DNA of 64,000 nucleotides from Candidatus Woesearchaeota archaeon (GCA_016927245.1 JAFGNA010000011.1:29330-93329), one strand, 5' to 3'. Shown: positions 35,864 to 43,658, numbered from the stretch's first letter. Numbers and translations are program-made. The notes: generated by a model not told the origin, from the sequence alone.

Positions 35864-37390
35864 ATGACCCTGACAGGGTATGCGGGAGGACAGGTGGCAA
35901 GCCACATGGTATCAGTACAAGAGCTCCTGGACAACGGCGTCCTCATCGACCCAGGACTCGTAGAGCAGGGAATACCAGGAACAGTCCTCGGGCGGATACT
36001 CGAGAAGTACGGCGAAGACCTCGTAGTCATAGAGAAAGACATGGTCGAAGAATGCGCCGACCCCCAAGAGACCGGCGGCGCGAACGTCGAGGTCATCTGG
36101 TCCTACGATCAAGAGCCGAAGAAGCGCACCTACGACGACTTCGTAAAGCTCCTCCAAACACGTTTCCGTGAGCTTGAACACCTGCTCAAGACGCGGCAAG
36201 AACTCGCCTCGACGACCTCCATCAACAGGATAAAAGCAAAGCAGGACCGCGACCACGTCAGCGTCATCGCCATGGTCAAAGACAAGTCCGAGACCGCGAA
36301 CAACAACATCATGCTCGTCCTAGAAGACTTCTCAGGAACCATCAAAGCGCTCATATCATGCAAGAAACAGGAATTGTTCGACCTCGCCAAGGACGTGCAA
36401 CTCGACGAGGTCCTCGGCTTCACCGGCATGGGAGCGGGCGACATCATCTTCGTGGACAACATCATCTTCCCCGACATACCACTCACCAAGGAGCTCAAGA
36501 AGGCACCAAGGGAAGAGTACGCGGCGTTCATAGGCGACCCGCACTTCGGCAGCAAGGCTTTCCTCAAGGACGACTTCGAGCGCATGCTCCTCTGGCTACA
36601 AGGGAAAGCAGGGAACGACGAGCAGAGAGCCCTCGCCGCGAAGGTGAGATACGTGTTCATCACCGGCGACCTCGTCGAAGGAGTAGGCGTCTACCCCGGA
36701 CAAGAAAACGACCTCACCATCAAGGACATCAAGGAGCAATACGCAGAAGCCGCCGAGTACCTCTCACGCATACCACCCCGCATGCGCATCATCCTCTTCA
36801 CCGGCAACCACGACGCCGGCCGCCTCTCAGAGCCGCAAGAGCCCATCATGCGCGAGTACGCCCCGCAGCTGTACCACCACCCGAACATCACGATCACGAG
36901 CAACCCATCCATGGTGAACATCGGCGCCGCCGACGGCTTCCCAGGCCTCGACTGCCTCCTCTACCACGGCGGCAGCTTCATCTACTACGCAGACACTATC
37001 CCCAGCATCAGGGCGGCAGGAGGCCAGAAACGAGTCGATCTCATCATGCGCTACCTCCTGCAACGACGACACCTAGCCCCGACGCACAACGCGGCCATGA
37101 CCATCCCCACTACTGACAAGGACTGGCTGCTCATCGACCGAGTCCCAGACCTGTTCATCAGCGGCCACATCCACCGCGTGAGCGTCAGCAACTACAGGAA
37201 CGTGACGTGCATCAACGCAGGTTGCTGGACAGAGATAACTGAGGACCAGGTGAAGCGAGGCCTGGAGCCGCAGCCGAGCAAGCTCATCATCATCGGCCTG
37301 CACAACAGGCAAGTAAAATTGATGAACTTCAAAAAGGAACGATCAGCGCCCGCTAAGAGGACGAGCGATGAAGAACAGGAGGATCCCTGA
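35864..37390 (+). CDS. dp1: DNA polymerase II (PolD) small subunit DP1
   Basis: Calcineurin-like phosphoesterase motifs GDPHFG, GNHD, GHIH. OB-fold N-terminal region. 508 aa. Confidence 0.9.
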   Translation: MTLTGYAGGQVASHMVSVQELLDNGVLIDPGLVEQGIPGTVLGRILEKYGEDLVVIEKDMVEECADPQETGGANVEVIWSYDQEPKKRTYDDFVKLLQTRFRELEHLLKTRQELASTTSINRIKAKQDRDHVSVIAMVKDKSETANNNIMLVLEDFSGTIKALISCKKQELFDLAKDVQLDEVLGFTGMGAGDIIFVDNIIFPDIPLTKELKKAPREEYAAFIGDPHFGSKAFLKDDFERMLLWLQGKAGNDEQRALAAKVRYVFITGDLVEGVGVYPGQENDLTIKDIKEQYAEAAEYLSRIPPRMRIILFTGNHDAGRLSEPQEPIMREYAPQLYHHPNITITSNPSMVNIGAADGFPGLDCLLYHGGSFIYYADTIPSIRAAGGQKRVDLIMRYLLQRRHLAPTHNAAMTIPTTDKDWLLIDRVPDLFISGHIHRVSVSNYRNVTCINAGCWTEITEDQVKRGLEPQPSKLIIIGLHNRQVKLMNFKKERSAPAKRTSDEEQEDP

Positions 37391-40300
37391 TGGCCAAGGA
37401 TGGCATGGCGTGCAGCCCCGCCATCAAGGCGTACTTCGACGATATCGAACGCAAGACGAAGAAAGCCTTCGAGGCGGCCACGGAGGCACGCCAACAAGGA
37501 TACGACCCTGAACGATTCGTAGAGGTCAAGCTCGCCAAGAACATGGCTGAACGAGTAGTAGGCATCATCAGCGTCGCGGCCCCGCAGATCATCGGCAGCG
37601 GCGTGACCGAGCGCATCATCGAGCTCGAGAAGGAGTACGGCCTCCAGGACTGGCGAGTCGCGTTCGTCATCGCGCTCGAGATAGCGCGGCAACGACACTG
37701 CTCCTTCAAGGACGAGCTCGAGGCGATAGAGGTAGGCGTCAGGACAGGGTTCGCGTACGTCACGGTGGGCGTGGTCTCCTCCCCGCTAGAAGGGCTGACG
37801 AGCATCGACATCAAGCGTCGCAGGGACGGCCGAGGAAGCTATTTCTGCCTGAACTACGCAGGCCCCATCAGGAACGCTGGGGGGACCGCCGCCGCAGTCT
37901 CAGTCCTCATCGCTGACTACGTTCGCAAGCACCTAGGCTACGCAAAGTACGACCCTGATGAGAAAGAGGTGCAGCGCTGCTACGCCGAGCTCGAGGACTA
38001 CCACCAATACGTCGCCAACCTGCAATACTACCCGTTCAAGGAGGAGTCCGAGTTCCTCATGCGGCACATCCCCGTAGAGATAGCCGGCGACCCGTCTGAG
38101 AAGCGAGAGGTGTCCAACGTCGGCGTCAAGGACCTCCCGCGCGTGCAGACCAACCACCTCCGCAGCGGCTACTGCCTCATCCACTCATCATGCATCCCGC
38201 TCAAGGCTCCCAAGCTATGGAAGCAGATCTCCAAGTGGAAGGAAGAGATGGGCATGGAGGACTGGGAATTCCTCGAAGAGCACATCAAGCTGCAGAAGGA
38301 GCTCAAGGCGAAGCAGGCAGAGCAGACAGCCCAGCACCAAGAGAGCGACGCGAAGATCAAGCCTGACGGCACCTTCGTCGCAGACCTCGTCGGCGGCCGA
38401 CCAGTACTCGGACACCCGATGAGGAGCGGCGGCTTCCGCCTCCGGTACGGCAGGAGCAGGGCTTCCGGCTACTCAGGACAAGCGACACACCCGGCAACCC
38501 TCGCCATCCTGAACGGGCTCATCGCCACGGGCACCCAGCTCAAAGTGGAACGGCCAGGGAAAGCCGCGGCGTTCACCACGTGCGACACCCTCATGGGGCC
38601 CATCGTCAAACTCGATGACGGCAGCGTGGTGTCGTTGCGGGACGAGGCGACCGCTCGTGAACTCTCCCCGCGCGTCAAGGAGATACTCTACCTCGGCGAC
38701 GCCCTCATCAACTATGGCGATTTCTTCGACCGCGCCCACGTCCTCGTCCCCCCAGGCTACGTCGAGGAGTTCTGGGCGCTCGAGGCCGAGGAGTCGTTGC
38801 GAGAGCACGGCGATGAGCCAGACGCGCGGCTACGGGAAGCGATCAATAACCCGCTCTCCACCAAGGTGTCTTTCTCAGAGGCAAAGTCATGGTCCTCTTC
38901 TTACGGCTTGCCGTTGCACCCCTCGCACCTGTTCTTTTACGCCGAGGTCGACAAGGAGCAGTTGCTCGCCCTCGCGTCCTGGCTTGGCAAGGCGTCGTTC
39001 ATGCTCGGAGGCTCCCCCAGCGTATCGCTCCCGCTCCCTCACCCTGGGAAGCGCACGCTCGAGCTGCTCGGCGTGCCGCACCGCGTCGAGGATGGCCTCG
39101 CAGTCGTGTCCGGCGACGACGCCCTCGCGCTCACGGCCACGTTGCGGGTGAGGAGTAAGGAGGAGGCGTCATCGCTCGAGTCGTTCGTCAAGGACGCGGA
39201 GGGCTCAGCGCTCAGCATCGTGCAGGAGCGAGCATCGTTCATCATCAAGGACAAGTCAGGATTGTTCATAGGGGCGCGCATGGGACGGCCGGAGAAGGCG
39301 AAGATGCGTAAGATGACAGGCAGCCCGCACACGTTGTTCCCCGTCGGCGCTGAGGGCGGCCGGCTCCGCAGCTTCCAGTCAGCGTTGGAGAAGGGGCTCG
39401 TCACCGCGGAGTTCCCCGTGTTCCTCTGCCCTGAGTGCGGTCATCGCTCCCCTTTCTCTGTGTGCGACAAGTGCGGCGCTCTCGGCGTTCGCCAGAAGGT
39501 TCATCCGCGAACTGAGGATCTCGTGCCGCCCGGGGCTGCTGAGGAATCAGGGATCGAGTTCCTTGACTTCAAGCGGTGGGGCGTGCCTATCAGGGACCTC
39601 TTCGACTATTGCTTGCGGCGCATGGGCACGAAGGTGTACCCTGACTTGGTCAAGGGCGTTCGCGGCACGGTAGGCAAGGACCACACCCCCGAGCACCTCC
39701 TCAAAGGCATCTTGCGGGCGAAGCACGACGTCTACGTGAACAAGGACGGCACGGTGCGGTACGACGCGTCAGAGGTCGCCCTGACGCACTTCAAACCGAA
39801 AGAGGTCGGGACGCCTGTCGCTCGTCTGCGAGAGCTCGGCTACACCAAGGATAATAAGGGGGAGGAGTTGCGGCGCGATGACCAGGTGCTTGAGCTCCGC
39901 GCCCAGGACGTCGTCCTGCCCGCCTGCCCTGACAGCCCTGATGAGGGGTCTGACAAGGTGCTCGTGAGCATAGCGAAGTTCCTGGACGAGCTGCTCGTCA
40001 CGTTGTACGGGCTCCCGCCGTTCTATAATGTCTCTTCTCGCGATGACCTCGTCGGCCACATCGTCGTGGGGTTGGCGCCGCACACCAGCGCAGGGGTGGT
40101 GGGGCGTATCATCGGCTTCAGCAAGACGCAAGGGTTCTTCGCGCACCCGTTGTACCACGCCGCTATGCGACGGGATTGCGATGGTGACGAGTCGTGCTTC
40201 TTCCTCCTCATGGACGCGTTCATGAACTTCTCCCGCCGCTTCATGTCAACGTCTCGCGGTAGCACCATGGACGCTCCTTTGGTGTTGACTACCTTGCTCA

Positions 40301-40932
40301 ACCCGGCAGAGGTGGATGACATGGCGTTCAAAATGGACATCGCTGATCATTACCCGCTCGAGTTCTACCGTGCGTGCCAGGAGTACAAGATGCCGTGGGA
40401 TGTTTCTGTCAGGAAGATCGGCGACGTCCTCTTCACCCCCGCGCAGTTCGAGGGTATGCGCTTCACGCACGGCACTGATGACATCAACGCAGGGGTGTTG
40501 TGCAGCGCGTACAAGCTCTTGCCGTCCATGGGGGAGAAGATTGCCGCTCAGATGGACTTGGCGGAGAAGCTGCGCGCGGTGGACACCGCTGATGTCGCTC
40601 GCTTGGTCATCGAGAAGCACTTCATCAGGGATACCAAGGGCAATCTGCGCAAGTTCTCATTGCAGCAGTTCCGGTGCGTGCAGTGCAACGAGAAGTTCAG
40701 GCGTCCTCCTCTGAACGGCCGGTGCTCCTCGTGCGGCGGCAAGGTCATCTTCACGATTTCTGAAGGATCAGTCACCAAGTACTTGGAGCCGTCGTTATTG
40801 CTCGCGGAGAAGTACGACCTGGACGCGTATTTGCGGCAGACGCTGGAGCTGACCAGGGTGCGTGTCGAGTCGTACTTCGGCAAGGAGAAGGAGAAGCAGA
40901 CAGGGTTAGCGGGCTGGCTGGGCGGCGGGTGA
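37390..40932 (+). CDS. dp2: DNA polymerase II (PolD) large subunit DP2
   Basis: 1180 aa. Conserved DP2 regions including Zn-binding CPECG..CDKCG and the catalytic region. No intein (canonical length). Confidence 0.9.
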   Translation: MAKDGMACSPAIKAYFDDIERKTKKAFEAATEARQQGYDPERFVEVKLAKNMAERVVGIISVAAPQIIGSGVTERIIELEKEYGLQDWRVAFVIALEIARQRHCSFKDELEAIEVGVRTGFAYVTVGVVSSPLEGLTSIDIKRRRDGRGSYFCLNYAGPIRNAGGTAAAVSVLIADYVRKHLGYAKYDPDEKEVQRCYAELEDYHQYVANLQYYPFKEESEFLMRHIPVEIAGDPSEKREVSNVGVKDLPRVQTNHLRSGYCLIHSSCIPLKAPKLWKQISKWKEEMGMEDWEFLEEHIKLQKELKAKQAEQTAQHQESDAKIKPDGTFVADLVGGRPVLGHPMRSGGFRLRYGRSRASGYSGQATHPATLAILNGLIATGTQLKVERPGKAAAFTTCDTLMGPIVKLDDGSVVSLRDEATARELSPRVKEILYLGDALINYGDFFDRAHVLVPPGYVEEFWALEAEESLREHGDEPDARLREAINNPLSTKVSFSEAKSWSSSYGLPLHPSHLFFYAEVDKEQLLALASWLGKASFMLGGSPSVSLPLPHPGKRTLELLGVPHRVEDGLAVVSGDDALALTATLRVRSKEEASSLESFVKDAEGSALSIVQERASFIIKDKSGLFIGARMGRPEKAKMRKMTGSPHTLFPVGAEGGRLRSFQSALEKGLVTAEFPVFLCPECGHRSPFSVCDKCGALGVRQKVHPRTEDLVPPGAAEESGIEFLDFKRWGVPIRDLFDYCLRRMGTKVYPDLVKGVRGTVGKDHTPEHLLKGILRAKHDVYVNKDGTVRYDASEVALTHFKPKEVGTPVARLRELGYTKDNKGEELRRDDQVLELRAQDVVLPACPDSPDEGSDKVLVSIAKFLDELLVTLYGLPPFYNVSSRDDLVGHIVVGLAPHTSAGVVGRIIGFSKTQGFFAHPLYHAAMRRDCDGDESCFFLLMDAFMNFSRRFMSTSRGSTMDAPLVLTTLLNPAEVDDMAFKMDIADHYPLEFYRACQEYKMPWDVSVRKIGDVLFTPAQFEGMRFTHGTDDINAGVLCSAYKLLPSMGEKIAAQMDLAEKLRAVDTADVARLVIEKHFIRDTKGNLRKFSLQQFRCVQCNEKFRRPPLNGRCSSCGGKVIFTISEGSVTKYLEPSLLLAEKYDLDAYLRQTLELTRVRVESYFGKEKEKQTGLAGWLGGG

Positions 40933-40984
40933 TCTGGAGGGTTTTTCTTTCTGGGTATGATTACTGTTAACACTCGAGCTTGGT

Positions 40985-41120
40985 CGATTTTCGTAGAAAA
41001 TCAGACGGAGCTGCAAGCGAAGTGACCAAGGTCGTGTTTAGCTCTTCCGAAGCCGCAGGCTGAGAGGACGCAGTCCGTGGGTCGAGGAGAACTTTTGTTC
41101 GACGACGAAGTCACTGTTCC
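40985..41120. repeat. Non-coding repeat element, copy A of a ~150-nt family
   Basis: ttcgtagaaaatcagacggagctgcaagcgaag...cgtgggtcgaggagaacttttgttcgacgacgaag is about 70-75% similar to copies at 41893-42045 and 42048-42090. Confidence 0.4.
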
Positions 41121-41213
41121 TATAACAAAAAAGAGAGAGTTGCCGCCGCTCATTCGTACCTTTTTAAACCAAAAACCAGAAGGTTTTTATAGTTATACAA
41201 ACTTATATACCTT

Positions 41214-41492
41214 ATGCCGCAAGCACTAGCAAAAAAAGAAATTCTACATTATCCTCGATTAGACACTGTTCTAATGGTTGAGGAGCTCATCAAAGAACAC
41301 TCAGGCGAGTACAAAAAAAAGGCACTTTGGGAGTCACTTCCAAAAGGAATGATGTATCAAACATTCTGTGTGGTCTTTGATTACTTGCTAGATTCAGGAA
41401 AAATCGCTCTAGATAAAGAAGGACACATCGCATGGATCTGGAATCCAGAACTCGTAAAAAAATACTTGTCAAAACCAGAACTTTGGGTGTGA
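41214..41492 (+). CDS. Putative antitoxin partner (92 aa, possible winged-helix)
   Basis: Small ORF ending 4 nt before the RelE-like gene start. Low GC. No recognisable RelB/Phd motif. Confidence 0.3.
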   Translation: MPQALAKKEILHYPRLDTVLMVEELIKEHSGEYKKKALWESLPKGMMYQTFCVVFDYLLDSGKIALDKEGHIAWIWNPELVKKYLSKPELWV

Positions 41493-41495
41493 ACC

Positions 41496-41825
41496 ATGGA
41501 GTCAAAGGTAACATTTGGAGATATAAAGCTCAAAGAAGCATATACTAAATTGAAGACTTCAAAAACTGAAGATCAAATGCTTTACAAATGGATAACAAGA
41601 GCAATAGATGATCTAAAAGTAAATGCCTTTTGTGGAACGCAAGTTCCAAAGAGAGTCATCCCAAAAATCTACACTGAGAAATACGAGACGGACAATCTTT
41701 GGAAATATGACTTGCCAAAAGGATGGAGACTCATCTACACTATAGCAAATGGCGAAGTACTTATCATTTCAATAATTCTAGAATGGATGACTCACAAAGA
41801 CTACGAAAAAAGATTCAAATACTAA
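41496..41825 (+). CDS. relE: RelE/ParE-family toxin (mRNA interferase)
   Basis: C-terminal KGWRLIYTIANGEVLIISIILEWMTHKDYEKRF matches the archaeal aRelE pattern (GDYRVIYSV....V.IL.L.PRG) and overall fold pattern. Confidence 0.5.
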   Translation: MESKVTFGDIKLKEAYTKLKTSKTEDQMLYKWITRAIDDLKVNAFCGTQVPKRVIPKIYTEKYETDNLWKYDLPKGWRLIYTIANGEVLIISIILEWMTHKDYEKRFKY

Positions 41826-41892
41826 AAAAGGCGGCAACTCTCTCAAAAACAATAAATAACAGTGATTGAGCTATACATCGGGCTTAAGGAGA

Positions 41893-42095
41893 GTTTCGAC
41901 TGAAAGGAGAAATTCGGGCGGAGTCTGCAAGACGAAGCTCTTTAAGCCCTGTTAAGTCGCCCCGAGCAATTTATTGCGAGAGCCTGCAAGGCGTGGGTCG
42001 GAGTAAAACTTGTTTTACGTAGAAGTAAAATTTGAGCTCTTAATATTCATTCGACTGAAGGGAGTCAAAATGTGCGGAGCACTAGTGGAAGCTTA
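41893..42095. repeat. Non-coding repeat element, copies B1 (full) and B2 (partial) in tandem; possible small structured RNA
   Basis: TTCGACTGAA(A/G)GGAG..GCGGAG repeated about 155 nt apart. B1 contains ggagtctgcaagacgaag and gagcctgcaaggcgtgggtcggag, matching copy A. About 45% GC. Confidence 0.4.
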
Positions 42096-42650
42096 TTAAA
42101 ATAATGAATCCTTAAAATAATCTTTGTAGTATATTGATCTTGAATTGCTAATTAATTTGTCATTATTATAATTAATTATTTCTAATGCTAGTTCTACATC
42201 ATAAAAATTTCTTTCAAAATATATTTCATTATTCTTGCTCCTATCATCAAAATATCCTAACCGTATTTGTTTTTGTTTTTCAATATCCTTTTCTCCTTTG
42301 AAAAGTTTAACTTGTATTTTTTGTTCAAGTGTTATTGGACTATAGAAACCTTCAAATACTAATTTTTTAATAGGTACTGTTTTTTTCGCAGGTACAACAT
42401 CTAAAATATATTTAGTTATCATACCACATTGAATATTTTGGACTGTAATCATATCTCCATAGATATCATCAAAACGTTTACCATCTTGTCCAATTGTTTC
42501 CCCATTATGATCTAGTGAGACTATCTTGATTGATTGGTGAACTATTTGAGATTCTGTAAGTATGTGTGCTATTTTAAATTCTTCAGTAACTATTAAATCT
42601 GAAATGCTTTTGTAAACTCGTTTCTTTGAATCCATATTATTGGAATTCAA
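42096..42650 (-). CDS. Hypothetical protein, about 30% GC, apparently foreign origin
   Basis: 184 aa. Strongly AT-biased codons unlike host genes. No recognisable motifs. Confidence 0.4.
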   Translation of the reverse strand: MNSNNMDSKKRVYKSISDLIVTEEFKIAHILTESQIVHQSIKIVSLDHNGETIGQDGKRFDDIYGDMITVQNIQCGMITKYILDVVPAKKTVPIKKLVFEGFYSPITLEQKIQVKLFKGEKDIEKQKQIRLGYFDDRSKNNEIYFERNFYDVELALEIINYNNDKLISNSRSIYYKDYFKDSLF

Positions 42651-42848
42651 TTTATCTATAAAAAGTTTTCCGCAGCTTTCACTTTTTGTTTCTTTTTTTT
42701 AAAAAGAAAGAGAGCTCAAATTTTATTCGACTTAACACGTATTTAGCGACCTTTTGGGAGCATAAAACGTGTTATGATTGCCGCGTAGCGGATGCTTTCC
42801 GGCTTCTTAGCTGTCATCGTTTTGAATTACTCTCTTTTTTGTTCCTTC

Positions 42849-43658
42849 ATGGATTATATGGCTCGTTTGCAGGAGGAGTGTGATCTTCGTGGTTTTAGCC
42901 GTCAGACTAAGAAGACTTATGCGTGTGTCGTCTCTTCTTTCCTCTGTTTTGTTGAGAAAAGAGGTTTAACCCTTGACAAGGTGGGTGTTAAGTCGTATTT
43001 GCTCTCCTTGCAGGTCTCTGCTAACGCCGCTCGCCTCTATCACGCCGCGCTCAAGTTCTTCTTCGCCAGCGTCCTCGATGACCCTTTCTCTGACGTGGAA
43101 GTCCCTAAGAAGCGGAAGCCTAAGATCCTTCCCAAGGTCCTCTCTAAGGAGCAGATCAAGAAAATCATTGATTCCACGGAGAACCTCAAGCATCGCCTTG
43201 TCATCAAGCTCCTCTACTCGTCTGGTTTGCGCCTCCAAGAACTCATCAATCTCAAAAGGGCGCATGTCGACTTCGACAGGGGTCTTATCAACGTCGTCCA
43301 AGGCAAGGGCAAGAAGGATCGGGTCACCCTCCTCTCAAATGAACTCCGGTTGGACCTCCTCAAATACTACAGCTTAACAACTTTCCAGACGCCGTACGTG
43401 TTCGAAGGACGAAAAGGCAAGTACAGCAAGAAGTCCGTGCAGAAGGTCTTGGAGAAAGCGGGGAAAGCCATCGATGCAGAGCTCACCCCGCACATGCTCC
43501 GCCATTCCTTCGCCACGCACCTCTTGGAGGCTGGCGTCGACATCCGTTTCATACAGAAACTTTTAGGTCACGCTGATGTGAAGACGACCGAGGTCTACGC
43601 GTACGTCTCCAATCAGTCGCTCGCCGCTATCGAGAACCCGTTGGATCGCTTGGCTTAG
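42849..43658 (+). CDS. Tyrosine recombinase/integrase (XerA/XerC/D-like)
   Basis: C-terminal catalytic HMLRHSFATHLLEAGVDIRFIQKLLGHADVKTTEVYAYV (H..R, H, Y) and N-terminal SAM-like domain. About 50% GC with T-ending codons (gat, cgt, ctt, ttt) unlike host C-ending usage. Likely start at 42849. Confidence 0.8.
   Translation: MDYMARLQEECDLRGFSRQTKKTYACVVSSFLCFVEKRGLTLDKVGVKSYLLSLQVSANAARLYHAALKFFFASVLDDPFSDVEVPKKRKPKILPKVLSKEQIKKIIDSTENLKHRLVIKLLYSSGLRLQELINLKRAHVDFDRGLINVVQGKGKKDRVTLLSNELRLDLLKYYSLTTFQTPYVFEGRKGKYSKKSVQKVLEKAGKAIDAELTPHMLRHSFATHLLEAGVDIRFIQKLLGHADVKTTEVYAYVSNQSLAAIENPLDRLA

Follow-up and report, generated by a model that had tools for sequence, protein, structure and literature searches.

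What are the diverged repeats of about 150 nt that lie between the genes for DNA polymerase D (polD) and a tyrosine recombinase in a Candidatus Woesearchaeota genome? The window analysed here, a stretch of 64,000 nt taken on one strand (GCA_016927245.1 JAFGNA010000011.1:29330-93329), comes from a DPANN archaeon and carries, in order on its plus strand, the polD small and large subunit genes (35864-40932), a low-GC stretch, the recombinase gene (xerA), and genes for eIF2-beta, tRNA-Ala and MCM. Within the 1.9 kb between polD and the recombinase gene the GC content drops from around 60% to 26-45%, and it was here that the original prediction, made from the sequence alone, recognised a repeat family with copies A, B1 and B2. 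Our analysis suggests that these are probably copies of a structured element, similar to the attC sites of integrons, which marks the ends of mobile cassettes accumulated at a single site, S, upstream of xerA. The further proposal that the XerA-type recombinase, which lacks the additional domain of integron integrases (IntI), inserts circular cassettes beside its own gene, making this a native DPANN platform that is either ancestral to integrons or their independent relative, we regard as evenly balanced between true and false.

The homology of the copies was assessed by pairwise alignment. A (approximately 40975-41111) and B1 (41880-42045) give a Smith-Waterman score of 27, compared with 10.5 +/- 1.7 (maximum 19) for 1000 dinucleotide shuffles, and z = 14 when the ends are trimmed, which places the local alignment about 10-14 standard deviations above shuffles. 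The alignability of about 70-75% originally proposed for this pair was borne out, MAFFT column identity being 74-79%. The 17-nt block CGGAG(N)CTGCAAG(N)CGAAG has its sole occurrences in the 64 kb in A and B1, where none would be expected. The partial third copy was likewise recovered, since 42050 to about 42100 resembles the head of B1 (about 72%, z = 8.4), and a fourth copy, inverted and limited to the 3' third of the unit, adjoins the recombinase gene at 42709-42752 (z = 8). Plain BLASTN (word size 7) does not report the match between A and B1 at E < 10, so their sequence similarity must be modest; it rests largely on structure. The sub-repeat gagYctgcaagRcg, said to be present in every unit, is exact in B1 (at 41921 and 41980) but not found in A, where both positions are occupied by hairpins of other sequence, GCU-GCA-AGC and GGAC-GCA-GUCC.

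The copies had been described as flanking a cassette bounded by terminal inverted repeats (the TIR cassette), which proved too simple: unit A resumes beyond that cassette in a tail of its own (41865-41878), collinear with that of B1, and deletion of 41112-41864 in silico joins A to its tail. The three copies A, B1 and B2 are therefore arranged head to tail in a single series, and the segment encoding a toxin-antitoxin (TA) pair lies inside A. A coding role for the units was ruled out by 1-nt indels and by stop codons in all frames. Template and variable repeats of diversity-generating retroelements, type III TA repeats, hammerhead-type ribozymes, origin recognition boxes and C/D or H/ACA small RNAs (sRNAs) were dropped as their defining motifs are absent from the sequence.

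Each full unit comprises two domains predicted to fold on the plus strand: D1, a three-way junction of helices P1, P2 and P3, and D2, a set of small hairpins whose loops are mostly G-N-A triloops. A covariance model, R1, was built with seven helices and with B1 as its sole seed. The structured elements of the window are as follows.

40979-41030, plus strand: D1 of unit A, a three-way junction (R1 match at 40975-41127, 61 bits, E 6e-11; inverted repeat; covariation), with helices P1, CTTGGTC (40979-85) and GACCAAG (41024-30); P2, GATTTTC-GTA-GAAAATC (40986-41002); P3, GCT-GCA-AGC (41010-18)
41045-41111, plus strand: D2 interior of unit A, with AGCC-GCA-GGCT, GGAC-GCA-GTCC and GAAC-TTTT-GTTC and the conserved GAGAG and GTGGGTCG, from comparison with B1 and the covariance model alignment
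41880-41949, plus strand: D1 of unit B1, in the R1 seed and marked by an inverted repeat; P1 41880-90/41939-49, P2 41891-97/41909-15, P3 41923-26/41930-33 with a GCA loop
41960-42025, plus strand: D2 interior of unit B1; P4 41966-69/41974-77, P5 41982-85/41989-92 with a GCA loop, P6 42003-08/42013-18
42039-42105, plus strand: B2, a relic copy with D1 only; P1 TTAATA/TATTAA, P2 GACT/AGTC, P3 GTGC-GGA-GCAC

Searches with R1 recovered related units at the xerA loci of other DPANN archaea (contigs designated L), scoring 78 bits in L217, 54 in L083, 40 and 34 in L209, and 28 and 21 in L201, compared with 61 for A. Every match lies on the xerA strand. No match was found in the 52 polD loci searched (about 650 kb), nor in the 79 loci encoding distant homologues of Xer, the latter drawn from a metagenome-contig search with XerA whose matches were 33-47% identical and which also supplied L083. 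The element is thus kept in other lineages, as the covariance search suggested by the original prediction was meant to establish, and its similarity is not of low complexity.

Covariation is very strong both in D1 and in the whole unit. Among ten D1 copies from five populations, 97.7% of cells pair, compared with 67.5 +/- 2.3% in shuffled alignments and 29-57% with slid partners, while for five copies of the whole unit the figure is 95.6%, compared with 71% shuffled and 28-51% with slid partners, all in alignments fitted to the R1 model, which inflates pairing. Both sides have changed in 19 of 22 pairs of D1 and in 29 of 43 pairs of the whole unit. P1 is a perfect helix of 7-11 bp in every copy yet is of unrelated sequence in each, and could not therefore have been produced by model-fitted alignment.

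Units related to A and B1 are present upstream of S in L083, L201/L202, L209-L215 and L217, with diverged forms in L205. They occur only upstream of xerA and co-oriented with it, in five DPANN lineages whose XerA proteins are 42-65% identical to that of the window. Each D1 is flanked by an ..AAC box on one side and by a TGTT.. box on the other. Two boxes recur as exact reverse complements immediately next to S in the window and in L083 and L201: box a, a stretch of 9-11 nt that starts with TGTT and comes straight after D1, and box b, of 13-16 nt, at the end of D2. The cargo lies between the boxes and these complements. An exact reverse complement of box a was found 0.3-1.3 kb downstream of 9 of the 11 D1 sites, with near matches for the other two, and this copy is always directly followed by the next D1 or by S. 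Cassettes delimited in this way occur in series, four in L217 and three to four in L209/L210, and their cargo consists of TA and restriction-modification (R-M) genes, methyltransferases and small ORFans. Read on the strand of the open reading frames (ORFs), each cassette has TT-a at its start and R''(..AAC)-D1-spacer-G at its end, just as an integron cassette is arranged with its attC. Between polD and S the window has two such cassettes, namely A (D1_A, D2_A and the TA pair) and B (D1_B1, D2_B1, the relic B2 and ORF184), with a cargo GC content of 26-39% in a genome of roughly 60%. Their boundaries and contents are listed here, a caret marking a junction point.

40967-40973, plus strand: distal array junction TTAACAC (AAC at 40969-40971), read from the sequence and paralleling the AAC duplication seen between L209 and L210
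41034-41044, plus strand: box a of cassette A (GTGTTTAGCTC), complementary to 41868-41878 with one mismatch
41112-41864, no strand assigned: cargo of cassette A (the earlier TIR cassette), GC 36-39%, with an outer inverted repeat CACTGTT/AACAGTG and an inner perfect 15-nt inverted repeat, 41133-47/41830-44
41214-41492 and 41496-41825: ORFs of cassette A, of 92 aa and 109 aa, the second with a weak ParE/YoeB-like toxin match
41868-41879, plus strand: reverse complement of box a of cassette A (GAGCTATAC, a TAC variant of AAC) and then ATC, forming the junction to the next D1
41950-41959, plus strand: box a of cassette B (TGTTAAGTCG), in which GTTAAGT fits GTTRRRY; exact reverse complement at 42728-42737
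42026-42040, plus strand: box b of cassette B (TAAAATTTGAGCTCT); exact reverse complement at 42711-42725
42096-42650, minus strand: ORF184, cargo of cassette B, GC 26%, matching no family and reading away from xerA
42711-42737, plus strand: proximal cassette end, with the reverse complement of box b (42711-25), TT, and that of box a (42728-37), ending in AAC (42734-36)
42734-42777, plus strand: S, the putative attI-like platform site, AAC^ACGTATTTA (42734-45), 17 nt, TAAAACGTGTT (42763-73), ending GTTATGA

The xxxTAAC/TAC-ATC(G)-P1 junction that joins A to B1 is also found in L083, L209 and L217. The end of B2 overlaps the stop codon of ORF184, and a B2-like variant is present at L083 1-60. 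Neither PADLOC nor NCBIfam produced a match for ORF184 or the TA proteins. The 7-mer TTAACAC of the distal junction is present again at the S junction (42732-42738), so that its two copies bracket the whole array (40972-42736). This pairing is consistent with an ancestral junction of polD, S and xerA, although no relative with such an empty arrangement was found; as judged from sequence, the empty ancestral S would read polD..CTGTTAAC^ACGTATTTAG..xerA.

An insertion event is visible among contigs that encode an identical XerA protein: L210 and L214 are empty at S, while L209, L211, L213 and L215 are occupied. The empty site reads TTTCTACTAAC^ACCTATTAAG. The insert of 2.25 kb encodes an MjaI-type endonuclease and an N6/N4 methylase and has its own D1 at its distal end. 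The occupied junctions read TACTAAC^GTTTGCGG-D1 and GCGTTGAAC^ACCTATTAAG, which in L209 are TACTAAC^GTTTGC and GTTGAAC^ACCTAT, and comparison with the empty site therefore shows that only AAC was duplicated. The 28-bp dif site (11-6-11) duplicated at both insert ends, as would be seen in dif recombination, is not observed. The insertion lies about 90 nt upstream of the start codon of xerA, and its breakpoint is 4 nt from P1. L205, L207 and L208 were considered as a further cassette polymorphism but ruled out, since they share the same arrangement and differ in gene calls.

Several side observations concern the cassettes and their exchange. L212 has the same R-M cargo as L209 but a different distal part: comparison of L212 1385-1650 with L209 2664-2850 shows a different D1/D2 module, and the box a of L212, TGTTATGTCT, is also present in L217. 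The breakpoint between the two lies about 30 nt after box b, a position suggesting that exchange occurs between units and not at AAC alone. Elsewhere a class-I tRNA synthetase gene (PF00579) is found as cassette cargo (L209 1256-2663, L210 3503-4910), which is unusual for a gene of core type. Its cassette obeys the rule for both boxes, box a TGTTAGTAGA being matched by TCTACTAACA at S and box b TAATTGCCCGCCGC by GCGGCGGGCAATTA.

The conserved fold raises the question of whether the units act as RNA. They might be structured RNAs, either sRNAs or cis-acting antisense or 3'-end elements, that travel with mobile genes and whose fold is maintained for RNA function, and a small structured RNA was indeed one of the original suggestions. 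The structure and its covariation stand: compensatory changes are strong in several of the helices, and two D2 motifs, GAGAG and GUGGGUCGGAG, keep their sequence from lineage to lineage. Wobbles on the window plus strand number 14 G.T and 0 A.C, although the alignment itself was fitted on that strand, and the plus strand may therefore be the one that folds. It is opposite to ORF184 and to most cargo ORFs, to which the units are thus antisense, as an RNA of this kind might be. A particular instance is P2 of D1, where columns 14/92 of alignment A8 hold G.U in eight of the ten copies, equivalent to a conserved A.C mismatch on the other strand. Fold and wobble evidence, however, cannot tell RNA from single-stranded DNA. 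Moreover, G-N-A triloops, closed in most cases by C-G, make up 19 of the 25 hairpin loops listed, and such triloops are best known as hyper-stable in single-stranded DNA. Nor does RNA function explain the junction rule, by which D1 lies exactly at cassette junctions between AAC and GTT with the insertion breakpoint so close to P1. With Rfam 15, tRNA-Ala alone reached threshold in the window and nothing matched over A or B1 even at E < 10; eight related loci produced no Rfam matches, and ARAGORN found only the tRNA-Ala in the window. The tie to cassette junctions favours recombination, and a role as RNA appears unlikely. The units do share with structured sRNAs, and with the repetitive extragenic palindromes (REP) and bacterial interspersed mosaic elements (BIME), an intergenic position, richness in hairpins, repetition and compensatory changes. 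They differ in matching nothing in Rfam, in being confined to one locus type beside xerA and to one strand, and in lying at mapped insertion junctions. Pattern scans of viral contigs found chance or phage-coding matches only, and a scan with a loose AAC-stem-GTT grammar performed no better than on shuffles.

If the units are instead attC-like recombination sites, as we favour, attention turns to the enzyme, whose gene is placed as follows.

42849-43658, plus strand: xerA-type tyrosine recombinase, 269 aa from MDYM, reading away from the array, with Pfam, NCBIfam and PDB matches

Database searches found 7071 XerA homologues at E <= 1e-20, the best 120 listed being mostly 60-65% identical and about 275 aa long. 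The recombinase scores 219.3 bits against the XerA family NF040815 of NCBIfam (cut-off 220) and 192 bits, in two stretches, against the integron integrase family TIGR02249 (cut-off 265). Its best match in the PDB is Pyrococcus abyssi XerA (4a8e) and its second VchIntIA (2a3v), the latter match being split in two at the position of the IntI insertion. The IntI-specific additional domain near patch III is not present in the 269-residue protein, for which integron integrase is the closest family outside Xer. Its longest ORF opens at 42792, whereas homologues begin at MDYM (42849); the latter start would put S about 70-115 nt upstream of the start codon, so that S could overlap the xerA promoter. 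S itself is kept upstream of xerA in relatives (BLASTN 80% in L080 and 73% in L079), and the same build is seen in L083, L081, L201, L210 and L217: it starts AACAYSTATTWAG, followed by a hairpin or an inverted arm. In the window the arms are of 12 nt and the spacer of 17 nt.

Much of this arrangement is shared with integrons. As there, the insertion site adjoins a tyrosine recombinase gene that reads away from it, and the cassettes are serial and mostly co-oriented, each with a folded, imperfectly palindromic site at its recombinase-distal end, the sites within an array being alike. The crossover would involve an AAC/GTT triplet with nothing else common to the partner sites, seen here in one event, and each cassette opens with bases complementary to its own site's R''-like box, implying that the cassette has a circular form. 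The newest cassette lies beside the platform, the cargo comprises TA, R-M and ORFan genes, and the bottom strand may be the one that folds. The recombinase differs, being of XerA type with 269-275 residues and without the additional domain of IntI.

This last difference might be explained if the array were an ordinary archaeal cluster of attC sites lacking integron-integrases (CALIN), with a true IntI encoded elsewhere and the proximity to xerA either incidental or due to a preference for dif-like sites. Archaeal integrons have already been reported (Ghaly et al. 2022, PMC9668308). According to the passages of that report on DPANN genomes, these (a few genomes of Woesearchaeales and of Pacearchaeales, together with a further order of Nanoarchaeia) contain attC clusters without IntI only, and the Nanoarchaeota attC described there have ATAAC...GTTAT boxes like the present ones. 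Most D1 copies read ATAAC/GTTAT, with one off-consensus position, and two junctions read TAC/GTA. Set against this explanation are the abutment of the arrays with xerA, at the same S and in the same orientation, in five lineages despite XerA identities of only 42-65%, and the insertion point some 90 nt from the xerA start codon. A Pfam scan, which covered ten ORFs at 35.9-48 kb, revealed no IntI gene near the array. The site architecture is also unlike that of the published archaeal attCs, which the same passages present as simple single hairpins of 59-97 nt (PMC9668308). We consequently judge a conventional array with a remote integrase to be improbable.

Two other Xer-dependent systems provide partial parallels. 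Integrative mobile elements exploiting Xer (IMEX) at dif include CTX-phi, the folded single-stranded attP of which is recombined by XerC. By analogy, the present system would use a housekeeping Xer at one chromosomal site, a folded single-stranded site and minimal crossover identity. It differs in that S has arms of 12 nt with a 17-nt spacer in the window, the mapped crossover is outside the S hairpin, the cargo consists of single genes in arrays and not of phage genomes, and the inserts lack flanking dif-like repeats. The pdif modules of Acinetobacter plasmids are bounded by Xer sites, conserved 28-bp XerC/XerD sites, and often encode TA systems. The present cassettes may be comparable as small gene modules, including TA, that are bracketed by inverted elements and linked to Xer-type recombination. 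Here, however, the inverted boxes are cassette-specific and a folded element of about 70 nt is present on one side only.

Inverted repeats are indeed prominent around the cargo. The TA pair lies between two nested pairs, the outer CACTGTT/AACAGTG and the inner perfect 15-mer, and nested perfect repeats surround other cargos too, for example a third pair, TGGGGCAGGGCG, at L209 2884-95/4685-96. Every cargo lies between perfect inverted repeats of 7-16 nt, sometimes nested, as would be expected of foldback or TIR-bounded non-autonomous transposons with passenger genes, similar to miniature inverted-repeat transposable elements or mobile insertion cassettes and moved by a transposase encoded elsewhere. 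We think this very unlikely, since the repeats are wholly different in each cassette and lineage and so offer no common end for a transposase to bind, there is no target-site duplication beyond AAC, and insertions are limited to one site and one orientation beside xerA. Least credible of all is that A and B1, although they lie to the left and right of the TA cassette respectively, are diverged attL/attR duplicates of its integration, given that A picks up again on the right-hand side (41865-78), where its own pair of box a and reverse complement is completed, that B1 is a separate full unit belonging to the next cassette, and that the two differ by about 25% with indels throughout and no identical core. 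Of the original suggestion of att remnants there survives the general idea of recombination-site repeats generated by insertions near a recombinase gene; the attL/attR of the TIR cassette do not, as no att or target duplication flanks it.

The interpretation of the units as attC-like sites served by XerA faces a number of difficulties of its own. D1 is a three-way junction with box spacers of 1 and 3-7 nt, while canonical attC is a bulged hairpin with 5-6-nt spacers, and D2 is an extra conserved domain with no counterpart in attC. Boxes a and b together provide 25-30 nt of end complementarity (9-11 plus 13-16), compared with 6-7 nt in integrons. The RYYYAAC/GTTRRRY consensus is matched fully by some copies only, B1 fitting both halves (ACTTAAC/GTTAAGT). 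At the A-B1 junction TAC/GTA takes the place of AAC/GTT, and B2 departs from the cassette rule. Folding of single units is no more stable than that of shuffles (z about -1 to +0.2 with RNA or DNA parameters on either strand), and to this should be added the fitting of the covariation alignments mentioned above. The recombinase, without the IntI insertion, resembles a housekeeping XerA with thousands of homologues. Finally, there is one insertion polymorphism only (L209/L210), and the recombination itself is something that we infer.

With these points in mind, a mechanism for attC-like units acted on by a recombinase can be proposed. Read on the minus strand, the layout is xerA (pointing away), S, G^TT, a cassette composed of box a, box b, cargo, the reverse complement of box b, D2, R''..AAC, D1, spacer and G, then ^TT and the next cassette. 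The cassette would be transiently circular, with box a pairing with the box beside D1. The window plus strand, the 'bottom' strand relative to the cassette ORFs, would fold so as to present D1 flanked by AAC and GTT, D2 perhaps contributing in some way. The recombinase, most likely XerA, would then exchange strands at this triplet with the AAC of S. New cassettes would therefore enter beside xerA and older ones move outward.

Integron integrases are thought to be descended from Xer-like recombinases but we know of no intermediate that couples a cassette array with a Xer-type enzyme lacking the IntI domain. Full-text literature searches found no account of a XerA-linked cassette array. If XerA does drive these arrays, the origin of integrons becomes directly testable and there would be an explanation for the 'integrase-less' attC clusters that DPANN genomes have been reported to contain. 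Symbiotic archaea with small genomes would also gain a defined route to TA, R-M and even tRNA synthetase genes. Such arrays can be found with the D1 model. They fragment metagenome assemblies immediately upstream of xerA, as illustrated by L199, L200, L203, L204, L206 and L216, metagenome contigs with identical XerA that end 0-230 nt upstream of the gene and whose breaks thus seem to fall at the variable array of cassettes.

The far boundary of the array in the window is formed by a core gene.

37390-40932, plus strand: DNA polymerase D large subunit (DP2), with Pfam PolC_DP2 domains at E 1e-77 to 1e-118

The closest polD relatives come from metagenome-assembled genomes of Woesearchaeota/Nanoarchaeia at 54-69% identity, and in these neither the repeat units nor xerA are nearby. 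The locus itself is contained in sequencing run SRR13394437.

Three smaller features of the arrays may be mentioned. A 14-nt exact inverted repeat, AACAAAAAAGAGAG, relates the left end of the TA segment (41124-41137) to the 5' region of the longest xerA ORF (42830-42843); it is of low complexity and may be due to chance. A second, shorter structured unit, undetected by R1, is present between cargo and S or at array ends (L205 1600-1860, L209 4700-4890 and L217 1640-1730), with a GGTGGTCGGGGG motif, C-GAA-G hairpins and 9-bp closing stems such as CTTTTATCC/GGATAAAAG. The array of four cassettes in L217 has at its far end (1560-1600) the 3' end of a tRNA gene (T-arm GGTTCGAATCC) within a called gene of 398 aa.

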